Below, piece by piece: positions 326 through 36,665 of a DNA stretch of 36,665 nt. Below the pieces are notes generated by a model that made no database searches, was not told the DNA's origin, and saw only the letters and a list, made by a program, of their open reading frames with translations. The stretch's first letter is position 1. The number at the start of each line of letters is the position of its first letter. The stretch spans positions 1 to 36,665 of the forward strand of contig CALRFC010000001.1 of assembly GCA_943356395.1 (NCBI GenBank), written 5' to 3'. The stretch is from Candidatus Nomurabacteria bacterium (GTDB lineage: Bacteria > Patescibacteriota > Minisyncoccia > Phycocordibacterales > UBA9973). The translations under genes and the position numbers were made by a program.

Positions 326-778
326 ATGGAAGACACAAAAGACACTCGCATTTATGAGCTCGGCTTCCTCATGGCGCCGACCATAGGAGAGGAGCACTTG
401 CCGGCGGAAGTCACCGCGCTCAAGGACATCGTTTCCGCGAAAGGCGGCGTGACGATCGCGGAAGAATTTCCGCGTTTCATCGAGCTTGCGTATCGGATGG
501 ATCGCACCATCGCGAACCGCAAGGAAAAATTCACGCATGCATACTTCGGCTGGATGAAGTTCGAAATGAGTCCGGAGAATGCCGACGCTCTCGGCAAAGA
601 GCTTGCCGACAACGACAAGCTTGTCCGCTACACGCTCTTTAAGACCGTGCGCGAAAATACGATCGCTTCGAAGCGTCCGATCCGCGAATCGCGGAAGAGA
701 GTGGCCTCCGACGAGCCGAAAGTTGAGATGAACAAAGAAGAGGTTGATAAGGAGATTGATGCGTTGGTAGCGGAATAG
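326..778 (+). CDS. rpsF: 30S ribosomal protein S6
   Basis: 150-aa ORF with an S6-like N-terminal domain (YELGFLM..., FGWMKFE), an acidic/basic tail, and the conserved rpsF-ssb-rpsR context. Confidence 0.88.
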   Translation: MEDTKDTRIYELGFLMAPTIGEEHLPAEVTALKDIVSAKGGVTIAEEFPRFIELAYRMDRTIANRKEKFTHAYFGWMKFEMSPENADALGKELADNDKLVRYTLFKTVRENTIASKRPIRESRKRVASDEPKVEMNKEEVDKEIDALVAE

Positions 779-944: not shown

Positions 945-1415
945 ATGTACCTAAACAAAGTCATGCTCATCGGCAATCTGACGCGCGATCCGGAATTGCG
1001 GTCTCTGCCGAACGGCACAAAAGTAACGAGTTTTTCACTGGCGACGAATCGCACATGGAAGGGCGCGGATGGCAATCGCCAAGAAGCGGTTGAATTCCAC
1101 AACGCCGTCGCGTTCGCAAAGCCGGCCGAACTCATCGCGCAGTATTGCAAGAAAGGAAGCTCGCTCTACATCGACGGACGGCTCCAGACGCGAAGCTGGG
1201 ACGACAAGACGACCGGCGAGAAAAAGTATCGCACCGAGATCGTCGTCGAGAATTTCCAGTTCGGCCCGCGTCCGCAAGGCGCAGGTCCCTCGACCGGAGT
1301 CTATCGCAATGACGCTCCTGCCACAGGCAAATCCGCTCCGACAGAATCAACCGGCGAGATCGATACGATCGAATATCCTGCGGAGAATGTGAATGCGGAA
1401 GATATACCGTTCTAG
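945..1415 (+). CDS. ssb: Single-stranded DNA-binding protein
   Basis: OB-fold N-terminus (NKVMLIGNLTRDPELR...), Gly/Pro-rich linker and the canonical acidic C-terminal tip ...EDIPF. Confidence 0.95.
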   Translation: MYLNKVMLIGNLTRDPELRSLPNGTKVTSFSLATNRTWKGADGNRQEAVEFHNAVAFAKPAELIAQYCKKGSSLYIDGRLQTRSWDDKTTGEKKYRTEIVVENFQFGPRPQGAGPSTGVYRNDAPATGKSAPTESTGEIDTIEYPAENVNAEDIPF

Positions 1416-1876
1416 TGAAAAGCGAACAGCGGGAAGTGAACAGGGAAATATAAATTACGAAAGCTGAAAAGCGAACACAAAATAACGAGAAACTATGAAT
1501 AACATCGTTTCGTTTAAAGACCTGATAGTCTGGCAAAAATCAATGGATCTTGCAGATGAGTCTTATAAGATAGCGAAGAAACTCCCTCCTTCAGAATTGT
1601 ATGGTCTTGCTTCTCAAATCAGACGCAGTGCCATATCTGTTCCAAGCAACATAGCCGAGGGGCATAAGCGTGGGACAAAAGATTTTTCTCGTTTTCTTAA
1701 AATTGCTTTCGGTTCTTCTGCTGAATTGGAAACTCAACTCCTTCTTGTTGCTCGCACATACCCGACGATTTCCGTAGAGAAAGCTCTTTCTTTGGTGATT
1801 GAAGTCGAAAAAATATTATCAACCATTATAAAAAAGCTGGAAAGCAAATAATCACTGTTCGCTTTCCGCTTCTTAC
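1416..1876. mobile_element. Inverted-repeat-bounded cassette carrying the four-helix-bundle ORF, inserted between ssb and rpsR
   Basis: AAAGCGAACAG (1419-1429) is the reverse complement of CTGTTCGCTTT (1855-1865). TGAAAAGCGAACA occurs twice in direct orientation (1416-1428, 1465-1477). ssb and rpsR are normally adjacent. Confidence 0.5.
1495..1851 (+). CDS. Four-helix-bundle protein (23S rRNA intervening-sequence protein / Avd-like family)
   Basis: 118 aa carrying the family signature: FKDLIVWQKSMDLADESY, LASQIRRSAISVPSNIAEG, GSSAELETQLLL. Confidence 0.9.
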   Translation: MNNIVSFKDLIVWQKSMDLADESYKIAKKLPPSELYGLASQIRRSAISVPSNIAEGHKRGTKDFSRFLKIAFGSSAELETQLLLVARTYPTISVEKALSLVIEVEKILSTIIKKLESK

Positions 1877-1889
1877 TTTACACTAGTAT

Positions 1890-2090
1890 ATGATTCAAGA
1901 TTTCTTCAGTTCAAACAATATCAAGCATATCGATTACAAAGACCTCGATATCCTTCGCAAGTTCATCAACCCGAACGGCCGGATCATTTCAGGGAAGCGC
2001 GGCGGGCTGACCGCGAAGAACCAGCGCGCTCTCGCGTCTGCTATTAAAAGAGCGAGATTCATGGGATTGTTGCCGTATGTGGCGAAGTAA
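1890..2090 (+). CDS. rpsR: 30S ribosomal protein S18
   Basis: 66 aa with IDYKDLDILRKFINPNGRI..., RALASAIKRARFMGLLPY. Confidence 0.9.
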   Translation: MIQDFFSSNNIKHIDYKDLDILRKFINPNGRIISGKRGGLTAKNQRALASAIKRARFMGLLPYVAK

Positions 2091-3020: not shown

Positions 3021-4076
3021 TCACTCCCCAGAGGAGGCAACCTGTATCTCTCCGAACCGTGCGCGAATTTCTTTTTCGAAATCTTTCAAGACTTTCGGAT
3101 TTTCGCGGAGCCACATGCGGGTAGCGTCATAGCCGCGTCCCATCGGAGTCTTTTCACCCTCTTTATTCTTGTACGAATACGACGCGCCGGATTTCTCGAT
3201 GATGCCGAGCTTCTCGCCCAAGGCCATCATTTCGCCTTCGCGGGAAATGCCTTCGCCGTAGATGATGTCGAATTCCGTTTGCTTGAAAGGCGCGGCGACT
3301 TTGTTCTTCACCACTTTCACGCGTGTCCTGCCGCCTACGACTTCTTCACCCTTTTTGATCTGCGCGATGCGGCGGATATCGAGACGGACCGAGGTGTAGA
3401 ATTTGAGCGCTTTTCCGCCCGGCGTGGTTTCCGGATTGCCGAACATGACGCCGATCTGCATGCGGATCTGGTTTATGAAAATCACGACGGTCTTCGAGCG
3501 GGCGACGATCGCGGTCAGTTTGCGGAGGGCCTGTGACATCAAGCGGGCTTGTTTGCCGACATGCGATTGGCCCATGTCGCCCTCGATCTCGTCTTTCGGC
3601 GTGAGCGCGGCGACGGAGTCGATGACGATAACATCGATCTTGCCGGAACGCACGAGTGACTCGCAGATTTCGAGGCCTTGCTCGCCGGTGTCAGGTTGGG
3701 AGATCAGAAGCTCGTTTATATTCACGCCAAGGTTTTTCGTGTAGACGGGGTCCATGGCATGCTCGGCATCGATGAATGCGCAGACGCCGCCTTTTTTCTG
3801 GGCTTCGGCGACGATGTGGAGCGAAAGCGTCGTCTTGCCGGAGGATTCCGGCCCGAAGATCTCGATGATGCGGCCGCGGGGGATGCCGCCGACGCCGAGT
3901 GCCATATCGAGACCGAGAGAGCCGGTCGGGATGACATCAATGTCGACTTTCGGACTGTCGCCGAATTTCATGATTGCACCTTCGCCGAACTTCGTCTGGA
4001 TGGAACGGATCGTGTCCTCAATCTCCGCGCCCATCTGCTTCTTTTCCTTTTCCGGTTTTTTTCCAAATCTTGGCAT
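3021..4076 (-). CDS. recA: Recombinase RecA
   Basis: 351 aa with Walker [10 protein letters not shown] and RecA signatures [31 protein letters not shown] and [22 protein letters not shown]. Confidence 0.97.
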
Positions 4077-4643: not shown

Positions 4644-6801
4644 ATTGGTACTCTGCCCGTTCCGTCTCCACGCTCTTTTCCAAAACTTCCCGCGGCTTTG
4701 CGCCGTTGCCGGGGCCGACGATGCCGCGCTCTTCCAGTATATCAATTAGCCGCGCCGCCCGCGCGTAGCCAACGCCCAACTTGCGCTGGAGGAATGAAGT
4801 GGATGCCTTGCCGGTCTCGATCACGATCTGCCGAGCTTCTTCGTAGAGATCATCATCGTCTCCGCCGTCATCACCGCCGATCGTCGTCGAGAAAATGCTG
4901 TTTAAGGGCGCGAGAGCTCCGGTCAGGTTCAATTCACTGGGCACTTCGTCGCGGAAGGCGTCCACCAGATATTTTACCACTTTTTTGACTTCTTCCTCGG
5001 AAATGAACGCGCTCTGCAATCGCTCCGGCTGGCCCTCGCCCGAGGCATAGAGCATGTCGCCCGAGCCCAAAAGCTTTTCCGCACCGCCCGCGTCCAAAAT
5101 CGTCCGCGAATCTATCTGGGTCGGCACGCGGAGCGCAACGCGGGTGGGGACATTCGCTTTGATGAGTCCGGTGATGACATTCACTTCCGGACGCTGGGTC
5201 GAAAGAATGAGGTGGATGCCGACCGCGCGCGACATCTGGGCGAGGCGAACAATCGCGCTCTCAAGCTCGCGCGGATAGGTCGACATAATGTCGGCGAGCT
5301 CGTCGATGATGATGACCATGTACGGCATCCGGTCGGTTTCCGCGTCCTGTTTTCCTTTGCCGTAGACGGTCTTGTGATACGACTGGATGTCACGCACGGA
5401 GCTTCCTTGCAAAATATCATATCTGCGCTCCATTTCTTTTGCCGCCCACTTGAGCGCCAAGATGCATTTCTTCGCGTCGGTGATGACGGGCGTGAGGAGA
5501 TGGGGGATGTTGTTGTAGAGCGTGAGTTCGACGCGCTTCGGATCGACCATGATGAATTTCAGGTCTTCCGGAGAATTCTTGTAGAGGAGCGATGTGATGA
5601 TGGCGTGAATGGCGACGGATTTTCCGGAGCCGGTCGTGCCGGCGATGAGCATGTGCGGCGCGCGCGCAAGATTCCGGAAGATCGATCTGCCCGGAACATT
5701 CTTGCCGATGGCGATCAGAAGCGGTTCCGCACTTGTCGCAAAATCAGGTTCGGATAGGAGCGAACCCAAGCCGACGGTCGATTTCGTCTTGTTCGGAATC
5801 TCGATGCCGACGAGCGACTTGCCCGGAATCGGCGCCTCGATGCGGATCGGATGCGCGGCGAGCGACAACGCGAGGTCGTTCTGGAGTCCGACGATGCGCG
5901 AGAGCTTCACGCCTTGTGCGGGCTTGAGCGCGTAGCGCGTGACGGTTGGTCCGATCGTGATCTCGTCCATCTCGACTTGGATGCCGAAATTCTCGAGCGT
6001 GCGCTTGATGATGTTCGAATTGGCTTTTATGTCGCCGGTGTTCGGCTTGCCGTGGTCGCGTTCGAGGAGTGAAAGCGGGGGAGGGGTGTACGGCCCGCGG
6101 CGGATCGGAACAATCTTTTTTGCCGGCTCGACGGGAAATTCCGCGTCATCGGCGGGCGTTTCTGATTCGGTTGCGTCGCTCTCGGTCTCTTCCTCATTAT
6201 TTTCATCCGCAGTTTCGATTGGCGGCACATCGCTCGGAATTTCTTCATCGTAATCATCCGCACCACCCTTGCGCGAGAAAATGGATTTCAGACTCTGCCA
6301 CATGGATTCGAAATCCGGCTTCTCATCAAGAAGGACAAAGAGAGAAACGAGAAGCAACGCTCCGAGAAAGATGATTCCGATGTAGGTGTCGAAAAGCGTC
6401 AGAAACGGCCACGCCGAAACTTGTCCGAGAAATCCGCTCGCGTGGCTCGCGCCGCTCGCGAGGTCTATCATGCCCAATACCGAAACGACAAAGAGGATCC
6501 CGCCCGCGATCTGCAGTTTGGACACGCTTTTCGATTCGCCGCGCATGAGTCCGATTCCGAGCGCGACCAAAACGATCGGAAGGAGAATATATCCGAGCCC
6601 GAGCAGTTTTACGGCGAATGTGTGGAGGAATTTTCCTGCCAATCCGCCGCCGCCGAAAATCGCGACAACGAAGAAAAGGGCCAAAACAAAAAGGAGGACG
6701 CCGGTTATCATTCTTCGGGTCTCTCGTTTCAATCCTATCGGTTTGTAATCAGAAGAATCTTCTTTTGAAGTTTTTTTCTTTCCGTCCTTTTTTTGCGCCA
6801 T
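4642..6801 (-). CDS. ftsK: DNA translocase FtsK/SpoIIIE
   Basis: N-terminal TM helices, acidic linker, motor domain with Walker A GTTGSGKS and IIDELAD, and a C-terminal gamma wHTH. Start is set at ATG 6801 (MAQKKDGKK) because the longer track ORF runs into the repeat hairpin. Confidence 0.93.
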   Translation of the reverse strand: MAQKKDGKKKTSKEDSSDYKPIGLKRETRRMITGVLLFVLALFFVVAIFGGGGLAGKFLHTFAVKLLGLGYILLPIVLVALGIGLMRGESKSVSKLQIAGGILFVVSVLGMIDLASGASHASGFLGQVSAWPFLTLFDTYIGIIFLGALLLVSLFVLLDEKPDFESMWQSLKSIFSRKGGADDYDEEIPSDVPPIETADENNEEETESDATESETPADDAEFPVEPAKKIVPIRRGPYTPPPLSLLERDHGKPNTGDIKANSNIIKRTLENFGIQVEMDEITIGPTVTRYALKPAQGVKLSRIVGLQNDLALSLAAHPIRIEAPIPGKSLVGIEIPNKTKSTVGLGSLLSEPDFATSAEPLLIAIGKNVPGRSIFRNLARAPHMLIAGTTGSGKSVAIHAIITSLLYKNSPEDLKFIMVDPKRVELTLYNNIPHLLTPVITDAKKCILALKWAAKEMERRYDILQGSSVRDIQSYHKTVYGKGKQDAETDRMPYMVIIIDELADIMSTYPRELESAIVRLAQMSRAVGIHLILSTQRPEVNVITGLIKANVPTRVALRVPTQIDSRTILDAGGAEKLLGSGDMLYASGEGQPERLQSAFISEEEVKKVVKYLVDAFRDEVPSELNLTGALAPLNSIFSTTIGGDDGGDDDDLYEEARQIVIETGKASTSFLQRKLGVGYARAARLIDILEERGIVGPGNGAKPREVLEKSVETERAEYQ

Positions 6802-6850
6802 GGAGACATTATAGAGGAGCGAAGGGAAAAGAGAAAGGAGAAAAATCCAT

Positions 6851-6924
6851 GCTTTCAGCTTCTTGCTTTTTGCTGTTAGCTTTTGAATTAAAAGCTGAAA
6901 GCTGGCAGCAAAAAGCAAGAAGCT
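6851..6924. repeat. AGCT-word repeat family, hairpin copy in the ftsK / wHTH divergent intergenic region
   Basis: AGCTTCTTGCTTTTTGCTG (6857-6875) is the perfect reverse complement of CAGCAAAAAGCAAGAAGCT (6905-6923). AGCTTTT (6878-6884) pairs with AAAAGCT (6890-6896). Confidence 0.75.
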
Positions 6925-6934
6925 TGTATTTTGC

Positions 6935-6998: not shown

Positions 6999-7829
6999 AT
7001 GGAAAAAGACACAAATCTTAATAAGGACGCAATTTTGTCGAAGCATGAATCAAAAGGACATGCTGTTGTTAATAATGAAAATAAACCTTCTCTTATAAGT
7101 ACAAAAGAAAAGGACATTTTTGTTTCTAGGACAGAAAAGCTCATCACTGCTCTTTTCATGGTCACGGACTGTATGGATGATTCGGAGCCGATGAAGTCCA
7201 AGATGCGCTCTTCCGGACTGTCCGTTTTGTCCGATACGCACCATCAGGCGCATCACGGCGTCATCCGGACATACATGCGTTTCGGATCAATGATAATCAG
7301 CATACACGAGCTCATTTCTTGCCTTACCGTCGCCGAATGCGTTGGCCTTATAAGCTCCATGAATAGCTCGATTTTGAAAAGAGAATTGGGCAGATTGAAA
7401 GATTTTTGCGAAGAGACGATGAAGCCGATACAGAGCTCGCTCCTGCCTGTAGGCATTTTCAAATCGGAACCGGTCGAGAGGGTCGTATTCGGTGACGATT
7501 TTTTTATGGAAAAAGAAAATTCTCCTTTAAAGGACAATAATTTTTCTAAAGGACATAAAGATTTAAATCAAAAAGACATAAGTCTTTTACAGAATAAACA
7601 AAAGGACATGTTTGTACAAAAAAAAGCGGATATTGCTTTAAAGCACGAGCGAAGAAACGCTATTTTATCTATAATTAAAAACAAGGAATTTGTCACAATA
7701 AAAGACATACTTGAAGTCATAAAGGACTGTGGTGGAAAAACGATCCAGCGAGAACTTTCACAACTTGTCTCTGAAAACATACTCAAAAAGACAGGAGATA
7801 AGAGGTGGTCTAGATACTCAATAAGATAG
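6999..7829 (+). CDS. Hypothetical protein with a C-terminal winged-helix DNA-binding domain
   Basis: 276 aa from ATG 6999. The upstream part of the track ORF overlaps ftsK and the repeat. The C-terminus RRNAILSIIKNKEFVTIKDILEVIKDCGGKTIQRELSQLVSENILKKTGDKRWSRYSI looks like a DeoR/MarR-type wHTH. Confidence 0.7.
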   Translation: MEKDTNLNKDAILSKHESKGHAVVNNENKPSLISTKEKDIFVSRTEKLITALFMVTDCMDDSEPMKSKMRSSGLSVLSDTHHQAHHGVIRTYMRFGSMIISIHELISCLTVAECVGLISSMNSSILKRELGRLKDFCEETMKPIQSSLLPVGIFKSEPVERVVFGDDFFMEKENSPLKDNNFSKGHKDLNQKDISLLQNKQKDMFVQKKADIALKHERRNAILSIIKNKEFVTIKDILEVIKDCGGKTIQRELSQLVSENILKKTGDKRWSRYSIR

Positions 7830-7872
7830 GGAATGGGTTAGAGGGGATAGGGAATAGTGAGACGCAGAATAC

Positions 7873-7961
7873 AAGCAAGCTTTTTGCTGTTTGCTTTCAG
7901 CTTCCAGCTTCTGAATTCGAATTCAAAAGCTAACAGCAGAAAGCTAAAAGCTGGAAGCTTG
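7873..7961. repeat. AGCT-word repeat family, copy downstream of the wHTH gene (probable terminator)
   Basis: Central palindrome GAATTCGAATTC (7913-7924). AGCTTCCAGCTT (7899-7910) is the reverse complement of AAGCTGGAAGCT (7948-7959). Followed by GTTTTTG. Confidence 0.7.
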
Positions 7962-8518
7962 TTTTTGTCTGTAAGAATCTCCTTATTTATCCGTCATTTG
8001 TTCTGTAACCCATAAGGGTGGGTTGCAGGGTGTGGATAACTAGAAAACCTTTGTTTTCCACAGTAGACGGTATTTACAGCGTTATGCTTATCCGTCTATA
8101 ATACCCGACAGGTGTAGCGCTCGCGTTTTTTTACGCTATGTGCTATACTCGAAACGGTATTTTTTGCACGATTGGATAGGCAACGGCAAGAGATATCGTA
8201 TAAGTATTTCGGCCTGATCGTTGAAAATTTAATACCATTATTCCTGTGCCGAACACGCAGTAATTTTGGATTGCATTTTCAGTCGATGAGGACGGATTAC
8301 TCTGCCCTGTCGACAAAGGCATCGCCTCCTGCTTTTGCGGAAACGCAAAATAAAAAGAGGCAAACCGTTCAGACATCTTAATTAAATGCCTGAACACAGC
8401 ATGCGCACACAAACTATAGTTTGTCGAAACTATGACTTTAGATTTAATGCGCATCGTCCTCTCTTCGTTTCTGATAAAGAGAAACGGATGACGACATTTA
8501 TCAAGCGATAATTTTATT

Positions 8519-29850: not shown

Positions 29851-29871
29851 ATACGCGATGCAAATGGGAAT

Positions 29872-29932
29872 CAGCTTCCAGCTTCTTGCTTCCTGCTGTT
29901 AGCTTTTAAATTCGGATTCAGAAGCTGGAAGC
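29872..29932. repeat. AGCT-word repeat family, hairpin copy
   Basis: GCTTCCAGCTTC (29874-29885) is the reverse complement of GAAGCTGGAAGC (29921-29932). CAGCTTCTTGCTTCCTGCTGTTAGCTTTTAAATT matches the 6856-6889 copy with 3 mismatches. Confidence 0.75.
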
Positions 29933-29951
29933 CTGTCCGAACGGATTCATC

Positions 29952-30151: not shown

Positions 30152-30330
30152 GTTCACCGTAGACAGCGGGCAGGGGAATATCCCCAGAGGTCCCGCCGAG
30201 GAAAGGAATGAAAGACAATTGACAATTGACTTTTGACAATTGACCGAAATGCAAACGCATTTTAAGTCAAATGTCACTTGTTAAATGTTAAATGTTTGCG
30301 TTCGCTCTACGGCCGAAAGGTCGATTTTTT
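30152..30330 (+). promoter_or_regulatory. Structured leader or short transcript ending in a weak terminator (candidate rplJL leader/attenuator)
   Basis: GCGGG...GGGGA-ATA-TCCCC...CCCGC nested stems (30167-30197). A 7-bp tandem array. CGGCC-GAAA-GGTCG followed by ATTTTTT (30310-30330). Confidence 0.35.
30214..30245. repeat. 7-bp tandem repeat GACAATT x4.5, which generates reiterated TTGACA hexamers
   Basis: GACAATT GACAATT GACTTTT GACAATT GACC. Confidence 0.85.
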
Positions 30331-30333
30331 ATT

Positions 30334-30680
30334 GGAAAATAATGAGTGAAGCGAATATATTTTCCATAACCCTGTTAAATAATTTTAAATCATGTCGCGG
30401 TATCATTACACATACGTATTGCGATCAAAGAAAGATAGCGATTTGTACGTTGGGTGTACCGCTGATTTAAAATTACGATTTGAGCAACATCAGAAAGGTC
30501 AAGTTGAGTCAACAAAGAATCGACGACCGCTTGAGTTGATATACTTCGAATCATGCTTGTCTAAAAGCGATGCACTACATCGTGAAAAATATTTTAAGAC
30601 ATATCATGGTAAGCAGTTTATCTACAAGAGGCTCAAATCGTATTTAACAGGGTGAGATTTTCCGCTTCGCTACAAATCTC
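30334..30680. mobile_element. GIY-YIG ORF cassette bounded by nested inverted repeats, ending at the rplJ start codon
   Basis: ACCCTGTTAAATA (30369-30381) is the perfect reverse complement of TATTTAACAGGGT (30641-30653). GGAAAAT (30334-40) pairs with ATTTTCC (30657-63). Flanking local hairpins have loops carrying GTGAAGCGAA and CCGCTTCGCT. Confidence 0.45.
30392..30655 (+). CDS. GIY-YIG domain nuclease-family protein (stand-alone, 87 aa)
   Basis: YHYTYVLRSKKDSDLYVGCTADLKLRFEQHQKG...REKYFKTYHGKQF. Confidence 0.9.
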   Translation: MSRYHYTYVLRSKKDSDLYVGCTADLKLRFEQHQKGQVESTKNRRPLELIYFESCLSKSDALHREKYFKTYHGKQFIYKRLKSYLTG

Positions 30681-31169
30681 ATGATTACAAAAGAAAAGAA
30701 AACTCAATTGATAAAAGATATCGAGGCGATGCTCAAAAGCGCCGCATCAATCGTCTTCGTCAAATTCGACAAGCTCACGGTCAAAGACGCGAATGCGCTT
30801 CGCCGAGGGCTCGACAAGGAGAATGTCGCGTACAAGGTTTCCAAGAAAACGCTCCTGAAGCGCGTGCTCGATACGAAAGGATTCGAGGGTTCTCTGCCGG
30901 ACCTGGAAGGCGAGATCGCGATCGCCGCATCTTCCGACCCGCTCTCCGCGGCGCGCGAAGTGTATGCGTTCCAATCCGCGCACAAGGACAACATCTCGAT
31001 CGTCGGCGGCGTTTTCGACGGGAAGTATCAGGACAAGGCGCAGATGATTTCCATCGCGACGATTCCTCCGCTCCAAACGCTCCGCGGCATGTTCGTGAAT
31101 ATTATAAACTCACCCATTCAGCGATTGGTCATCGGACTCAATGCTGTTGCTGGGAAGAAAAGTGCGTAA
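30681..31169 (+). CDS. rplJ: 50S ribosomal protein L10
   Basis: 162 aa with KEKKTQLIKDIEAMLKSAASIVFVKFDKLTVKDANALRR. Followed by rplL. Confidence 0.93.
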   Translation: MITKEKKTQLIKDIEAMLKSAASIVFVKFDKLTVKDANALRRGLDKENVAYKVSKKTLLKRVLDTKGFEGSLPDLEGEIAIAASSDPLSAAREVYAFQSAHKDNISIVGGVFDGKYQDKAQMISIATIPPLQTLRGMFVNIINSPIQRLVIGLNAVAGKKSA

Positions 31170-31190
31170 ATTATAAATAATAAACTAGGC

Positions 31191-31251
31191 TTTAGGCACT
31201 AGGCTCTAGCAAAAATGCTAATGCCTAACGCCTAGTAGCCTAGTGCCTAAA
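31191..31251. repeat. TAGGC-word hairpin between rplJ and rplL
   Basis: TTTAGGCACTAGGC (31191-31204) is the perfect reverse complement of GCCTAGTGCCTAAA (31238-31251). Confidence 0.7.
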
Positions 31252-32763: not shown

Positions 32764-32836
32764 AGAAAGTAGAAAATAGTTAGTAGTAAATAGGAATTTT
32801 GGAGTTTTTTGCATTCTTTACTATTTTCTACTTTCT
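32764..32836. repeat. AGTAG/GAAA-word hairpin with a 17-bp perfect stem
   Basis: AGAAAGTAGAAAATAGT (32764-32780) is the perfect reverse complement of ACTATTTTCTACTTTCT (32820-32836). Confidence 0.8.
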
Positions 32837-33011
32837 ACCAACTACTTACTATATTTATGGCTTTTCCACACCCGTCCCTTTCCACTCCCGAAAACTGGTA
32901 TAATGGTTTCAGACTATGGTTGGCTGTTTCGGCGGCCAAACTGTCACAATTATCAGTAATCGTAAGCCGTTTCGAAACGGCACTGCCCGTTTTAAGGGCA
33001 CATTTCATACT

Positions 33012-33692: not shown

Positions 33693-33750
33693 AGATTAGA
33701 GAAAAGTAGCTAGTAGCTAGTAGCTAGGGACTAGAAAATTCAAATACAAT

Positions 33751-33790
33751 ACAAAAGGAACGCGGCGTACGCCGCGCTCCTTTTGTATTT
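33751..33790 (+). terminator. Strong intrinsic terminator
   Basis: ACAAAAGGAACGCGGC-GTAC-GCCGCGCTCCTTTTGT (16-bp stem with 1 mismatch) followed by ATTTT. Confidence 0.85.
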
Positions 33791-33911
33791 TCCTAGAACC
33801 TAAAAACTACCCGCCCGAACGTACCGTTCGGTACAGGCGGCGAACCAAGAACCTGAATTCCCGTTTGACATTCAAGCATATATTATGGTAATTTAATGAA
33901 AATTCTTAACA

Positions 33912-34806: not shown

Positions 34807-34900
34807 GCATTTTCTGGTATTTTTCCCAGCCCCTAGAAACTAGAACCTAGAACCTGTCTCCCTACAAAAGATATCCCCATCGCCCGAATTCCCCGCGGGG

Positions 34901-35020: not shown

Positions 35021-35407
35021 AGTTAGAAAAACATAGACAGCGCATTTCTTTGTTGCTTCGCTCGTTTGCTCCCGCAATGTACAGTCGTACATTTTGGTCG
35101 CAAGCCTCGCTCGCGCCTCGAACTGCACCTGCCTCTGTTTTTCTAAGAATACGACTGCACGACTGACCATTGATAACCAAATACGCTCCACCTTTGTTTA
35201 GACATGGGGTCTTTTCGGAGGATGGAGTGGCAGGAAAAATCGTCGTGCTTCACACGAATGACTAATACTCAATGACTAATATCTAAGTAGATGCGGAATT
35301 CCGCATTTCATTAGAAATTAGAAATTAGAACTTAGAAATTTCGCACGGAGTGCGACAAACGTATGTTGCAATCAGTAGTAGGCAGCGGTGTCGAAATGAT
35401 TGTAAAT

Positions 35408-35438: not shown

Positions 35439-35608
35439 TGGTGATTCTTACATTTCCTAATAGGAAATGTAAGAGCATATGGTGGATGCCTTGGTTTTGT
35501 ATGGCGATGAAGGACGTGGTATGGCTGCGATAAGCTTCGGGGAGGTGCCTAGCAACCGTTAATCCGAAGATGTCCGAATGGGGAAACCTCATTGCGTAAA
35601 CCGCAATG

Positions 35609-35670
35609 GCGTGCTTTGCACACAGTGTTTAAATATTTAAATATTTAAATATTGCGCGCAGAGCGCGCGC
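35609..35670 (+). repeat. 23S insertion block 1 (E. coli ~130-150 region)
   Basis: Extra sequence relative to E. coli, containing ATATTTAAATATTTAAATAT (35633-35652) flanked by GC-rich palindromic arms (TGCGCGCAGAGCGCGCGC). Confidence 0.6.
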
Positions 35671-35763
35671 TCACCCGGGGAAGTAAAACATTTCAGTACC
35701 CGGAGGAAAAGAAAACAATTGTTATTCTCCTAGTAGCGGCGAGCGAAAAGGGAAGAGCCCAAA

Positions 35764-35837
35764 CTGCGCATCACATTGCATGTGATGCTGATATTTAAAT
35801 ATTTAAATATCAGCATCGCGCGTAGCGTGATGCGCAG
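35764..35837 (+). repeat. 23S insertion block 2 (E. coli ~270-280 region)
   Basis: Closed by CTGCGCATCAC...GTGATGCGCAG. Internal perfect palindrome GATGCTGATATTTAAATATTTAAATATCAGCATC. The 20-mer lies at 35791-35810. Confidence 0.65.
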
Positions 35838-36140
35838 GGTTGTAAGGTGACGATGTAGATTTATCTAGAAGAGTTACAAAATATTTTGTTAGCGGAAGGC
35901 GCTGGAAAGCGCCGCCATAGAGGGTGATGGCCCCGTACGCGAAAATAAAATATCTCTTTGGTCGTCATTCTTGAGTACTTCGAGACACGAATAGCTCGGA
36001 GGAATCCACCGGAACTAACCGGTAAGGCTAAATACATACAAAAACCGATAGTGAACTAGTACCGCGAGGGAAAGGTGAAAAGAACCCCGATAAGGGGAGT
36101 GAAATAGATCTGAAACCATATGCTTACAAAGAGTCGGAGC

Positions 36141-36224
36141 GGACGCATCACACAGTGTGTGATGCGATATTTCAATATTTAAATATTTAAATATCAGCAT
36201 CGCGCTTTGCGCGATGCGCCCGTC
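36141..36224 (+). repeat. 23S insertion block 3 (helix 25 region, E. coli ~540-550)
   Basis: GACGCATCACACAGTGTGTGATGCG, then the 20-mer (36175-36194), then CAGCATCGCGCTTTGCGCGATGCGC. Confidence 0.65.
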
Positions 36225-36665
36225 ACGGCGTGCCTATTGAAGAATGAGCCAACGAGTTTATGCATATTGCGAGGCTAAGTCTTATAAACGGATGGAGCCG
36301 CAGGGAAACCAAGTGTTAATAGCGCGATTAAGTAGTATGCATAAGACCCGAAGCCAGGTGAGCTACCCATGAGCAGGTTGAAGTTTATCGAAAGATAGAT
36401 GGAGGACCGAACCGGTGAGCCGTTCAACACTCTCGGATGACTTGTGGGTTGGAGTGAAAAGCTTATCGAACCTGGTAATAGCTGGTTCTCTCCGAAATAG
36501 CTTTAGGGTTAGCGTCGCGTGTTCCTTTTGGGGGTAGAGCACTGGAAGATTTCGACAGGGAGCAATCTCGCGAAATCTATCAAACTCCGAATACCAGAAG
36601 TCAAAAACGCGGCAGTTAGACGGCGGGGGCGAAGCTCCGTTCGTCAAAAGGGAAACAGCCCAGAT

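Follow-up and report, generated by a model that had tools for sequence, protein, structure and literature searches.

Intervening sequences (IVSs) in bacterial 23S rRNA genes, such as those of Leptospira, Coxiella burnetii, Brucella and the Xanthomonas type, can hold in their loop an open reading frame (ORF) for a protein of the PF05635 family. The Coxiella IVS is 428–444 nt long and is closed by a 28-bp terminal stem, in which RNase III cuts; tandem GACAGAT heptamers lie upstream of its S23p ORF, which according to that report is in decay and probably not translated (PMC4990558). Solved members of this four-helix-bundle (FHB) family have been summarised as homopentamers (PMC4990558), and in bacteria of the candidate phyla radiation (CPR), the group that includes the genome studied here, both 16S and 23S insertions are reported to contain PF05635 ORFs (PMC11270868). 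We analysed a stretch of 36,665 nt (the window; 36.6 kb) from a Candidatus Nomurabacteria bacterium, contig CALRFC010000001.1, in which an FHB gene lies between ssb, encoding the single-strand DNA-binding protein (SSB), and rpsR, encoding ribosomal protein S18. The gene is bracketed by inverted arrays of 7-nt repeats, and we refer to the gene with its two arms as the cassette. To our knowledge, about 30 years have passed with no function assigned to rRNA IVSs and S23p/FHB ORFs, and the over-representation of heptamer repeats in many bacterial genomes is likewise unexplained; the cassette design links these three poorly understood things, the rRNA IVSs, their protein and the bacterial heptamer repeats.

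G-rich heptamers of the types GGGAATC and GGGGAYT are enriched in Xanthomonas and Nostoc, with four units preferred per array (Rehm et al. 2015, PMC4692102). The Xanthomonas arrays form about 70 convergent pairs, mostly transcribed, and were read as G-quadruplex formers; neither “S23” nor “XCC0516” appears in the main text of that study, and FHB genes were not connected with the repeats (PMC4692102). The FHB family is also homologous to Avd (PMC10053308), the accessory protein of diversity-generating retroelements (DGRs), in which a pentamer of Avd binds to structured RNA alongside a long-range duplex (bioRxiv 10.1101/2023.10.23.563531). Our own search found no literature linking non-rRNA FHB genes to inverted heptamer arrays, most subscription journals lying outside its coverage. 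The element described below is, on our reading, an IVS-type cassette in mRNA, and the association of FHB gene, heptamer arrays and intercistronic position was not met in the searchable literature.

The ORF (118 aa; 1495..1851, + strand) is, on its profile scores, an unambiguous member of the FHB family. It matches PF05635 with an E-value of 1.1e-31 (109.7 bits, cut-off 33.8) and TIGR02436, named S23p or “23S rRNA intervening-sequence protein” family, with an E-value of 2.2e-32 (111.5 bits, cut-off 24). An earlier note on this DNA, made from the letters alone, had assigned it to an IVS-protein/Avd-like four-helix-bundle family, and both profile matches bear this out. By sequence, the nearest protein of solved structure is Xanthomonas XCC0516 (2GSC; E 3.5e-20), and 2RLD is matched at E 1.3e-4; each contains five chains and is a homopentamer. 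The alignment with XCC0516 takes in the conserved PSNIAEG loop motif, VPSNIAEGH aligning with IPSNIAEGA. The predicted protein is basic (pI 9.5). The ORF has a GC content of 0.39, against 0.49–0.56 in the flanking genes, and a third-position GC of 0.35, against 0.65–0.69 in rpsF, ssb and rpsR. No match to it was found in the PADLOC and PHROGs libraries. The searchable portion of the genome was the 36.6 kb, in which no second copy of the ORF was found, nor was there one in the first 1032 model positions of its 23S rRNA gene.

The arms are two tandem arrays facing each other across the ORF. The 5' arm (1408..1446, + strand) is purine-rich, G-rich and C-poor (G 13 vs C 5) and consists of about five 7-nt units, GAAAAGC GAACAGC GGGAAGT GAACAGG GAAATAT. 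It pairs with the 3' arm (1852..1892, + strand), a pyrimidine-rich complement with the units CTGTTCG CTTTCCG CTTCTTA CTTTACA CTAGTAT that extends into the rpsR start codon. The best period was 7 nt for both arms, with about five units in each. In the minimum-energy fold of 1405–1895 (z = -3.0), the ORF is closed by 33 pairs between 1408–1446 and 1852–1892, including a contiguous core of 16 bp (1428–1443 with 1855–1870) and four G-U pairs. The strand-neutral inverted-repeat score between the two spacers was 34, compared with 14.8 ± 2.6 for shuffled spacers (0/2000 reached 34), and the RNA duplex energy was -39.4 kcal/mol, compared with -18.3 ± 3.6 (0/500 reached the observed value). The whole element measures 474 nt from the ssb stop to the rpsR start. 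The base of the stem contains both the ssb stop codon TAG (1413–1415) and the rpsR ATG (1890–1892), the latter paired with 1408–1410, so that folding would bring stop and start to the spacing they have at an empty site.

The topology proposed in the earlier note, with the ORF in the loop of a long-range stem as in an rRNA IVS, thus stands, and the stem is longer than noted. Its 11-mer, AAAGCGAACAG at 1419–1429 with the reverse complement at 1855–1865, lies exactly at those coordinates; because both arms are 7-nt periodic, several pairing registers are possible, and the 11-mer is among them. The direct copies of TGAAAAGCGAACA at 1416–1428 and 1465–1477 (+ strand) are also present as it described. 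The second is an extra copy of the first arm unit, ending 17 nt short of the FHB start codon, and could pair with 1856–1865 in an alternative inner stem. It looks like a window-specific arm duplication, since the orthologues introduced below have upstream spacers of only ~29–45 nt that lack such a copy.

A scan for SSB in species-representative genomes gave 80 loci from Nomurabacteria/Paceibacterota metagenome-assembled genomes, 78 of them with both genes. The ssb–rpsR spacer was ≤50 nt in 47/78 loci and 50–100 nt in 9/78 (≤100 nt in 56), and it reached 100–260 nt in a further 18. Three spacers of 428–439 nt contained an FHB ORF (L007, L012 and L029), and one of 364 nt contained a different small ORF (L073). 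The two genes are therefore normally adjacent, as the earlier note had stated, and the comparison with relatives that it proposed finds empty sites to be common. Homologues of the window protein were sought in a collection of 5.8 billion proteins, which returned >8000 matches, one part of a very large family. Among the matches listed, the top homologues were 70–75% identical, and all contexts checked of the nearest ones were again ssb|rpsR (L082–L084, L162, L164 and L166). These loci and L007, L012 and L029 carry orthologous cassettes. When hosts were arranged by neighbour joining, the carriers grouped into a single clade with empty sites interspersed among them, and in every orthologue the cassette takes up the whole spacer. 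The ORF is thus kept in the operon by relatives; the situation considered in the earlier note, an ORF conserved there free of flanking repeats, was not seen, as the inverted arms were always present.

The arms of the orthologues differ in sequence, the pairs being GCGAACAG/CTGTTCGC in the window, GCGAATAG/CTATTCGC in L082, GGGAATAG/CTATTCCC in L084 and GGTTATAG/CTATAACC in L029. This comparison shows that the arms have drifted as pairs with their complementarity kept. An upstream arm scored on average 30.6 with its own downstream arm and 20.2 with that of another element. RNAalifold on the arms of nine orthologues gave eight consensus pairs, four of them with compensatory changes; register slippage spoils the MAFFT alignment, and the own-arm and other-arm scores were used in place of this consensus. 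The substitution pattern of the ORF (pN 0.25, pS 0.71; dN/dS, the ratio of non-synonymous to synonymous substitution, ~0.15, next to ~0.13 for SSB) shows purifying selection on the protein. Remnants resembling the pyrimidine-rich 3' arm are found in the empty sites of L002, L010 and L024, and window-like arms in L046 enclose a loop of only ~90 nt, so that loss of the ORF occurs, as in rRNA IVSs.

Other inserts were seen at this junction. L084 (2369–2497) and likewise L164 have two tandem elements in the ssb–rpsR spacer, a lone heptamer hairpin with GGGAATAG arms and a ~20-nt loop, followed by a full FHB cassette with its own arms. The 364-nt spacer of L073 (3448–3814) holds a small non-FHB ORF that starts MTKEQIKTGLPWIIVLLVIIGGYF and is apparently membrane-anchored; the ssb|rpsR junction therefore accepts other inserts too. 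A more distant clade (L050, L061, L063, L066, L069, L070, L074, L077 and L078) has spacers of 150–260 nt, at ~3460–3730 of each locus, with a conserved hairpin. Its long outer stem varies between genomes yet stays paired, for example TTGAAATTTTTCT/AGAAAAATTTCAA and GATAAACTTTTTTCT/GAAAAAAGTTTATC, around a conserved core, CGTCGTAC...GTACGAC, and several of these spacers finish in CCTATAACC-type repeats, similar to a 3' arm, ahead of rpsR. This hairpin could be either a structured RNA not described before or what is left of a cassette.

Cassettes of the same design were found well beyond this clade, in many unrelated bacteria and each time between adjacent genes. We collected 80 metagenome loci with FHB genes 44–70% identical to that of the window and GC contents of 0.24–0.67; the sample was picked by similarity to a single query and represents one part of the very large family, and gene calls in the fetched loci were heuristic. 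The flank inverted-repeat score, computed between 130-nt flanks, was ≥30 in 40/72 and ≥40 in 24/72 FHB genes. When flanks were given mismatched partners the corresponding counts were 3/72 and 0/72, and for neighbouring genes from the same loci they were 3/80 and 0/80. Arm period was 7 nt in 32/40 loci and 8 nt in 6/40, with a median of 4.45 units per arm, and the arms sit a median of ~10 nt from the FHB start and stop codons. The unit sequences are unrelated across loci (e.g. GGGGCCA, GGGGTCA, AGTTTCAA, GCCACGAA and GTTAACNA). The upstream arm nevertheless had G>C on the coding strand in 38/39 (p = 1.5e-10), and the design is therefore tied to the direction of transcription. Neighbouring genes shared the strand of the FHB gene in 55/65 cases upstream and 47/65 downstream, which is not clearly above what is usual for adjacent bacterial genes and was left unused as evidence.

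Judged by the Pfam families of the flanking genes, FHB cassettes lodge between subunit pairs of housekeeping operons in unrelated bacteria: nuoG|nuoH, sdhA|sdhB, guaB|guaA, E2|E3, E1beta|E2 and M16|M16, as well as DUF58|BatA and accC. The earlier proposal that the unit targets translation-machinery transcripts finds no support, as same-armed cassettes stand at accB|accC, at the first six of these pairs and at others. The Xanthomonas case ties the cassette to the described repeats. There, an XCC0516-type FHB gene lies between accB and accC, with GGGAATC GGGAGTG GAGAATC GGGAATC upstream of it and a complementary CCCATTC... array downstream; these arms are the published GGGAATC heptamer repeats (PMC4692102). 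The accB|accC junction is occupied in Xanthomonas (L168/L171) and in an unrelated high-GC metagenome organism (L114), whose accC product is 56% and FHB protein 48% identical to those of L168/L171. The shared occupancy points either to an insertion of great age or to a junction that has been used repeatedly.

ORF, closing stem and heptamer arrays form one recurring unit that is found also between the cistrons of essential operons, at ssb|rpsR, accB|accC, nuoG|nuoH and sdhA|sdhB. For annotation, this means that cassettes split operons assumed to be contiguous, with stems that may determine in what ratio the subunits on either side are made. The question is testable in culturable Xanthomonas, where the protein of the accB-FHB-accC cassette has a solved structure (2GSC).

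Compared with ORF-bearing rRNA IVSs, the window element has the same protein in its loop, a size close to the 428–444 nt of Coxiella, a stem in the same range (~28–33 bp), purine-rich tandem heptamers upstream of the ORF and a presumed place within a host transcript with no promoter of its own. It differs in its position, between the ssb stop and the rpsR start and not in 23S helix 9, 25 or 45, and in the purifying selection on its type of ORF, whereas that of Coxiella is reported to decay. RNase III excision has been shown for rRNA IVSs; cleavage of the window stem would be by analogy. With the Xanthomonas and Nostoc heptamers the cassette shares 7-nt units in about four copies, arranged in convergent pairs between co-oriented genes, the sense strand being G-rich directly behind the stop codon and C-rich directly ahead of the next start. 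The window units (GCGAACAG type), however, are without G-tracts, and G-quadruplex formation therefore cannot be the common denominator. With Avd the likeness is that of a homologous basic four-helix-bundle pentamer, and the payload flanks of Avd-bound RNA form a long-range duplex. The intercistronic palindromes of enterobacteria known as REP (repetitive extragenic palindromic) elements and BIMEs (bacterial interspersed mosaic elements) are assumed to affect the processing and the stability of mRNA. They resemble the cassette as repeated hairpin-forming elements directly after stop codons inside operons, but FHB arms lack the REP consensus, are built of tandem heptamers that vary by locus, and can hold a protein gene in the loop.

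With moderate confidence, we favour the reading that the window element is an IVS-type cassette residing in mRNA rather than rRNA, with arms that form an RNase III-type stem. The operon begins with rpsF (ribosomal protein S6; 326..778, + strand; PF01250, E 1.3e-9), preceded by a sigma-70-like site at 218–245, and continues with ssb (945..1415, + strand; PF00436, E 1.1e-37; TIGR00621, E 3.8e-42), the cassette and rpsR (1890..2090, + strand; PF01084, E 6.9e-22); efp and recA, convergent, come after rpsR. No promoter-like or terminator-like site was found on the + strand within 832–2090, which is weak evidence, and the cassette, having neither of its own, would be transcribed with rpsF-ssb-rpsR. 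On the operon transcript the arms would close the ~33-bp stem and loop out the 400-nt insert, placing the ssb stop beside the rpsR start as in the empty site. RNase III could then cut the stem as it does in rRNA IVSs, which by the same analogy would free the FHB message and separate the flanking cistrons; no RNase III gene lies in the 36.6-kb window. As the arms lie close against the ORF, FHB translation too is probably restrained by the stem, which may also limit the polar effect on rpsR. It would thus be the stem that allows an essential operon to tolerate the insertion.

Several results weigh against this reading. Arm mismatches at the 40 loci were compatible with G-U in 34 cases and with A-C in 44, that is, with no excess of the former and therefore with no signature of selection for pairing in the sense RNA. 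No RNA run contained the window sequence, the three runs that did all being DNA runs of one lake-water metagenome, and an RNA search with the nuoG|nuoH cassette (L156) gave no match. Nor does a need for pairing alone explain the 7-nt periodicity of the arms.

It is this periodicity that is addressed by the alternative that the arms are primarily protein-binding arrays, in which the FHB pentamer would bind one 7-nt unit per protomer on single-stranded RNA or DNA and complementarity would be secondary. The protein would then regulate its own cassette and possibly, in trans, the ORF-less heptamer hairpins of the genome. We consider this possible, although unlikely as the primary role of the arms. 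The strict 7-nt period and the ~4.5 units per arm are left unexplained by a stem and fit a pentamer with one unit per protomer; the arms generally have 4–5 units, and Xanthomonas arrays prefer four (PMC4692102). The solved relatives 2GSC and 2RLD are pentamers, Avd in DGRs is a related pentamer that binds to structured RNA adjoining a long-range duplex (bioRxiv 10.1101/2023.10.23.563531), and the window protein is basic. An in-phase AG is retained in 28/38 arms while the rest of the unit varies, and the window has ~20 period-7 arrays but one FHB gene. On the other hand, units differ greatly between loci, even between orthologues with 60–75% identical proteins, so that recognition would have to be loose, and the complementarity between arms is far above controls, which binding sites alone do not require. 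Array binding is compatible with the IVS-type cassette and is not exclusive of it.

In a second alternative, the arms act at the DNA level as terminal inverted repeats or as hairpin/cruciform signals of a non-autonomous mobile cassette, moved by a host or trans-acting enzyme or by homologous recombination, and the RNA stem is a by-product. We hold this to be somewhat less probable again. Inverted termini do bracket a promoterless ORF, and the arm mismatches have no G-U over A-C bias. The occupancy of accB|accC in distant lineages points the same way, as does an identical 27-nt segment in two insertions of the window's 23S rRNA gene. Two observations detailed below also favour it: the conflict between FHB and host phylogeny in the window, and the cassette beside efp in L009, a close relative whose ssb|rpsR site is empty. 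FHB genes are AT-richer than their neighbours in 65/69 loci (median GC difference -0.08, p = 1e-12), as is typical of mobile genes. Against movement as DNA, the cassette encodes no transposase or recombinase, no transposase was found among the window ORFs and no reverse transcriptase in the window. Of the hallmarks of transposons and miniature inverted-repeat transposable elements, the inverted termini are present; no target-site duplication is recognisable, the arms are specific to each locus and not shared between copies, and the window has one ORF copy. The ssb|rpsR cassette has, moreover, persisted through ~40% protein divergence with purifying selection on its ORF, and the G-rich arm on the upstream side of the ORF (38/39) points to a constraint at the transcript level.

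Mobility also bears on how the window acquired its copy, as the FHB phylogeny there is at odds with that of the host. The window FHB protein is 70–75% identical to the L162/L082–84/L166 group and 58–66% to the L012/L007/L029 group, while its SSB shows the reverse (51–54% and 61–71%, respectively). SSB is 67–74% identical to that of L012, L007 and genomes with an empty site, and EF-P is 83% identical to that of L009 and 64% to that of L162. The FHB tree pairs the window with L162 as its sister, and the arm units of the window are of the L162/L082 type. Both SSB (74%) and EF-P (83%) make L009 the nearest genome to the window; it has an empty ssb|rpsR site (24 nt) yet carries a cassette beside efp. 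This is a different one (5410–5754, - strand; 53% identical FHB), with an inverted-arm score of 55.5. Because FHB gene and arms disagree with the host-gene phylogeny and the composition gap is large, the most economical account is that a related lineage richer in AT was probably the lateral source from which the window copy was re-acquired or replaced at this site. The account remains suggestive only, since the host trees were built from three short proteins by neighbour joining; deeper-node bootstraps of the FHB tree looked unreliable after re-rooting, and we relied on the pairing of window and L162 and on the identity tables. Moreover, FHB genes are AT-rich as a rule, and part of the composition gap of the window is therefore a property of the family. 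An empty-site allele of the source organism was not found in contigs of the three lake-water DNA runs, which contained only an unrelated short-spacer relative. The earlier description of the unit as transposable is thus supported only indirectly, by the signs of lateral movement in phylogeny and composition; the window has neither a transposase nor another copy of the ORF, and at ssb|rpsR itself the cassette is orthologous across the clade, with the nearest homologues checked at the same site.

More speculatively, FHB/array cassettes, ORF-less hairpins and rRNA IVSs may form one widespread class of selfish or domesticated elements that act at the RNA level through the FHB pentamer on its arrays. 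The pentamer would recognise arrays of ~5 x 7 nt, one unit per protomer. By analogy with Avd and the duplex-bracketed RNA of DGRs, it would then act either as a gate on the processing of host operons by RNase III or by bringing in, in trans, a reverse transcriptase to copy the stem-bracketed RNA into new intercistronic sites. We regard this as doubtful; if true, it would make the excess of bacterial heptamer repeats the footprint of this system.

That the ORF is an ordinary conserved small operon gene whose low-complexity spacers are complementary by accident is very improbable. Conservation and synteny of the ORF within the clade agree with it, but the complementarity beats all 2000 shuffles, arms recur at 40/72 homologous loci against 3/72 and 3/80 in controls, and most relatives are without the FHB gene. 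Least credible is that the ORF is the Avd of a DGR: the families are homologous (PMC10053308) and the bAvd model PF22296 gives a weak match (E 0.003), and CPR bacteria commonly carry DGRs, but the 18.5 bits of the bAvd match fall under the cut-off of 40, and ten related loci have the gene within an operon for ribosomal proteins. No reverse transcriptase domain was found in the 30 larger ORFs of the 36.6-kb window and no template/variable repeat pair near the ORF, and with the sub-threshold bAvd score the reading as a DGR component was rejected.

Heptamer arrays are frequent elsewhere in the window. Tandem Repeats Finder returned the ~20 period-7 arrays mentioned above, and hairpins with tandem 7-nt arms fill intergenic regions, each with its own unit (e.g. 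ATACGAAT, AGCTACT, GACAATT, CTAGGCT, AGAAAGT and AGTAGCT). They lie at 225–316, 2090–2200, 6849–6925, 29870–29935, 30213–30300, 31184–31245, 32764–32851, 33696–33810, 34832–34855 and 35271–35340. In clear cases the purine/G-rich arm comes after the stop codon of the upstream gene, in the direction of transcription. The element at 2090–2200 is oriented with efp, and some of the hairpins have a terminator-like hairpin within them. Four of the intergenic heptamer hairpins contain variants of the FHB arm motif, AAAGCTAACAG (seven matches vs 0.9 expected). Directly after the stop codon at 7827–7829, an ORF-less element with FHB-type arms occupies 7830–8008; its upstream arm reads GGGAATG GGTTAGA GGGGATA GGGAATA, and the pyrimidine-rich complement is at ~7965–8008. 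Its arms enclose a second long hairpin (7873–7964) rather than a gene, and from its layout it looks like a cassette minus the ORF.

The 23S rRNA gene (35459–36665) runs off the end of the window, which covers it up to before helix 45, and, compared with the bacterial model, contains inserted hairpins at model ~165 (35609–35668), model ~283 (35764–35837), model 312 (17 nt) and model ~583 (about 36140–36215), the last near what we take to be the classical helix-25 IVS site. The insertions are AT-rich, with tandem TTTAAATA/AATATTT units, and are ORF-less and IVS-like; the identical 27-nt segment, GATGCTGATATTTAAATATTTAAATAT, is common to the second and the fourth.

A free-standing 87-aa ORF with a GIY-YIG nuclease domain (30392–30655; PF01541, E 6.7e-16; no PADLOC match) lies 25 nt upstream of rplJ (30681–31169) and is preceded by the GACAATT heptamer hairpin at 30213–30300. 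With it, a further small gene, possibly a selfish one, stands beside a ribosomal-protein gene. Much of the remaining window (8519–29626) is a large, ordinary cell-envelope glycan cluster with genes for Wzy-type polymerases, GDP-mannose 4,6-dehydratase, epimerases, glycosyltransferases (GT2, GT11 and GT17), a DegT aminotransferase and a flippase.

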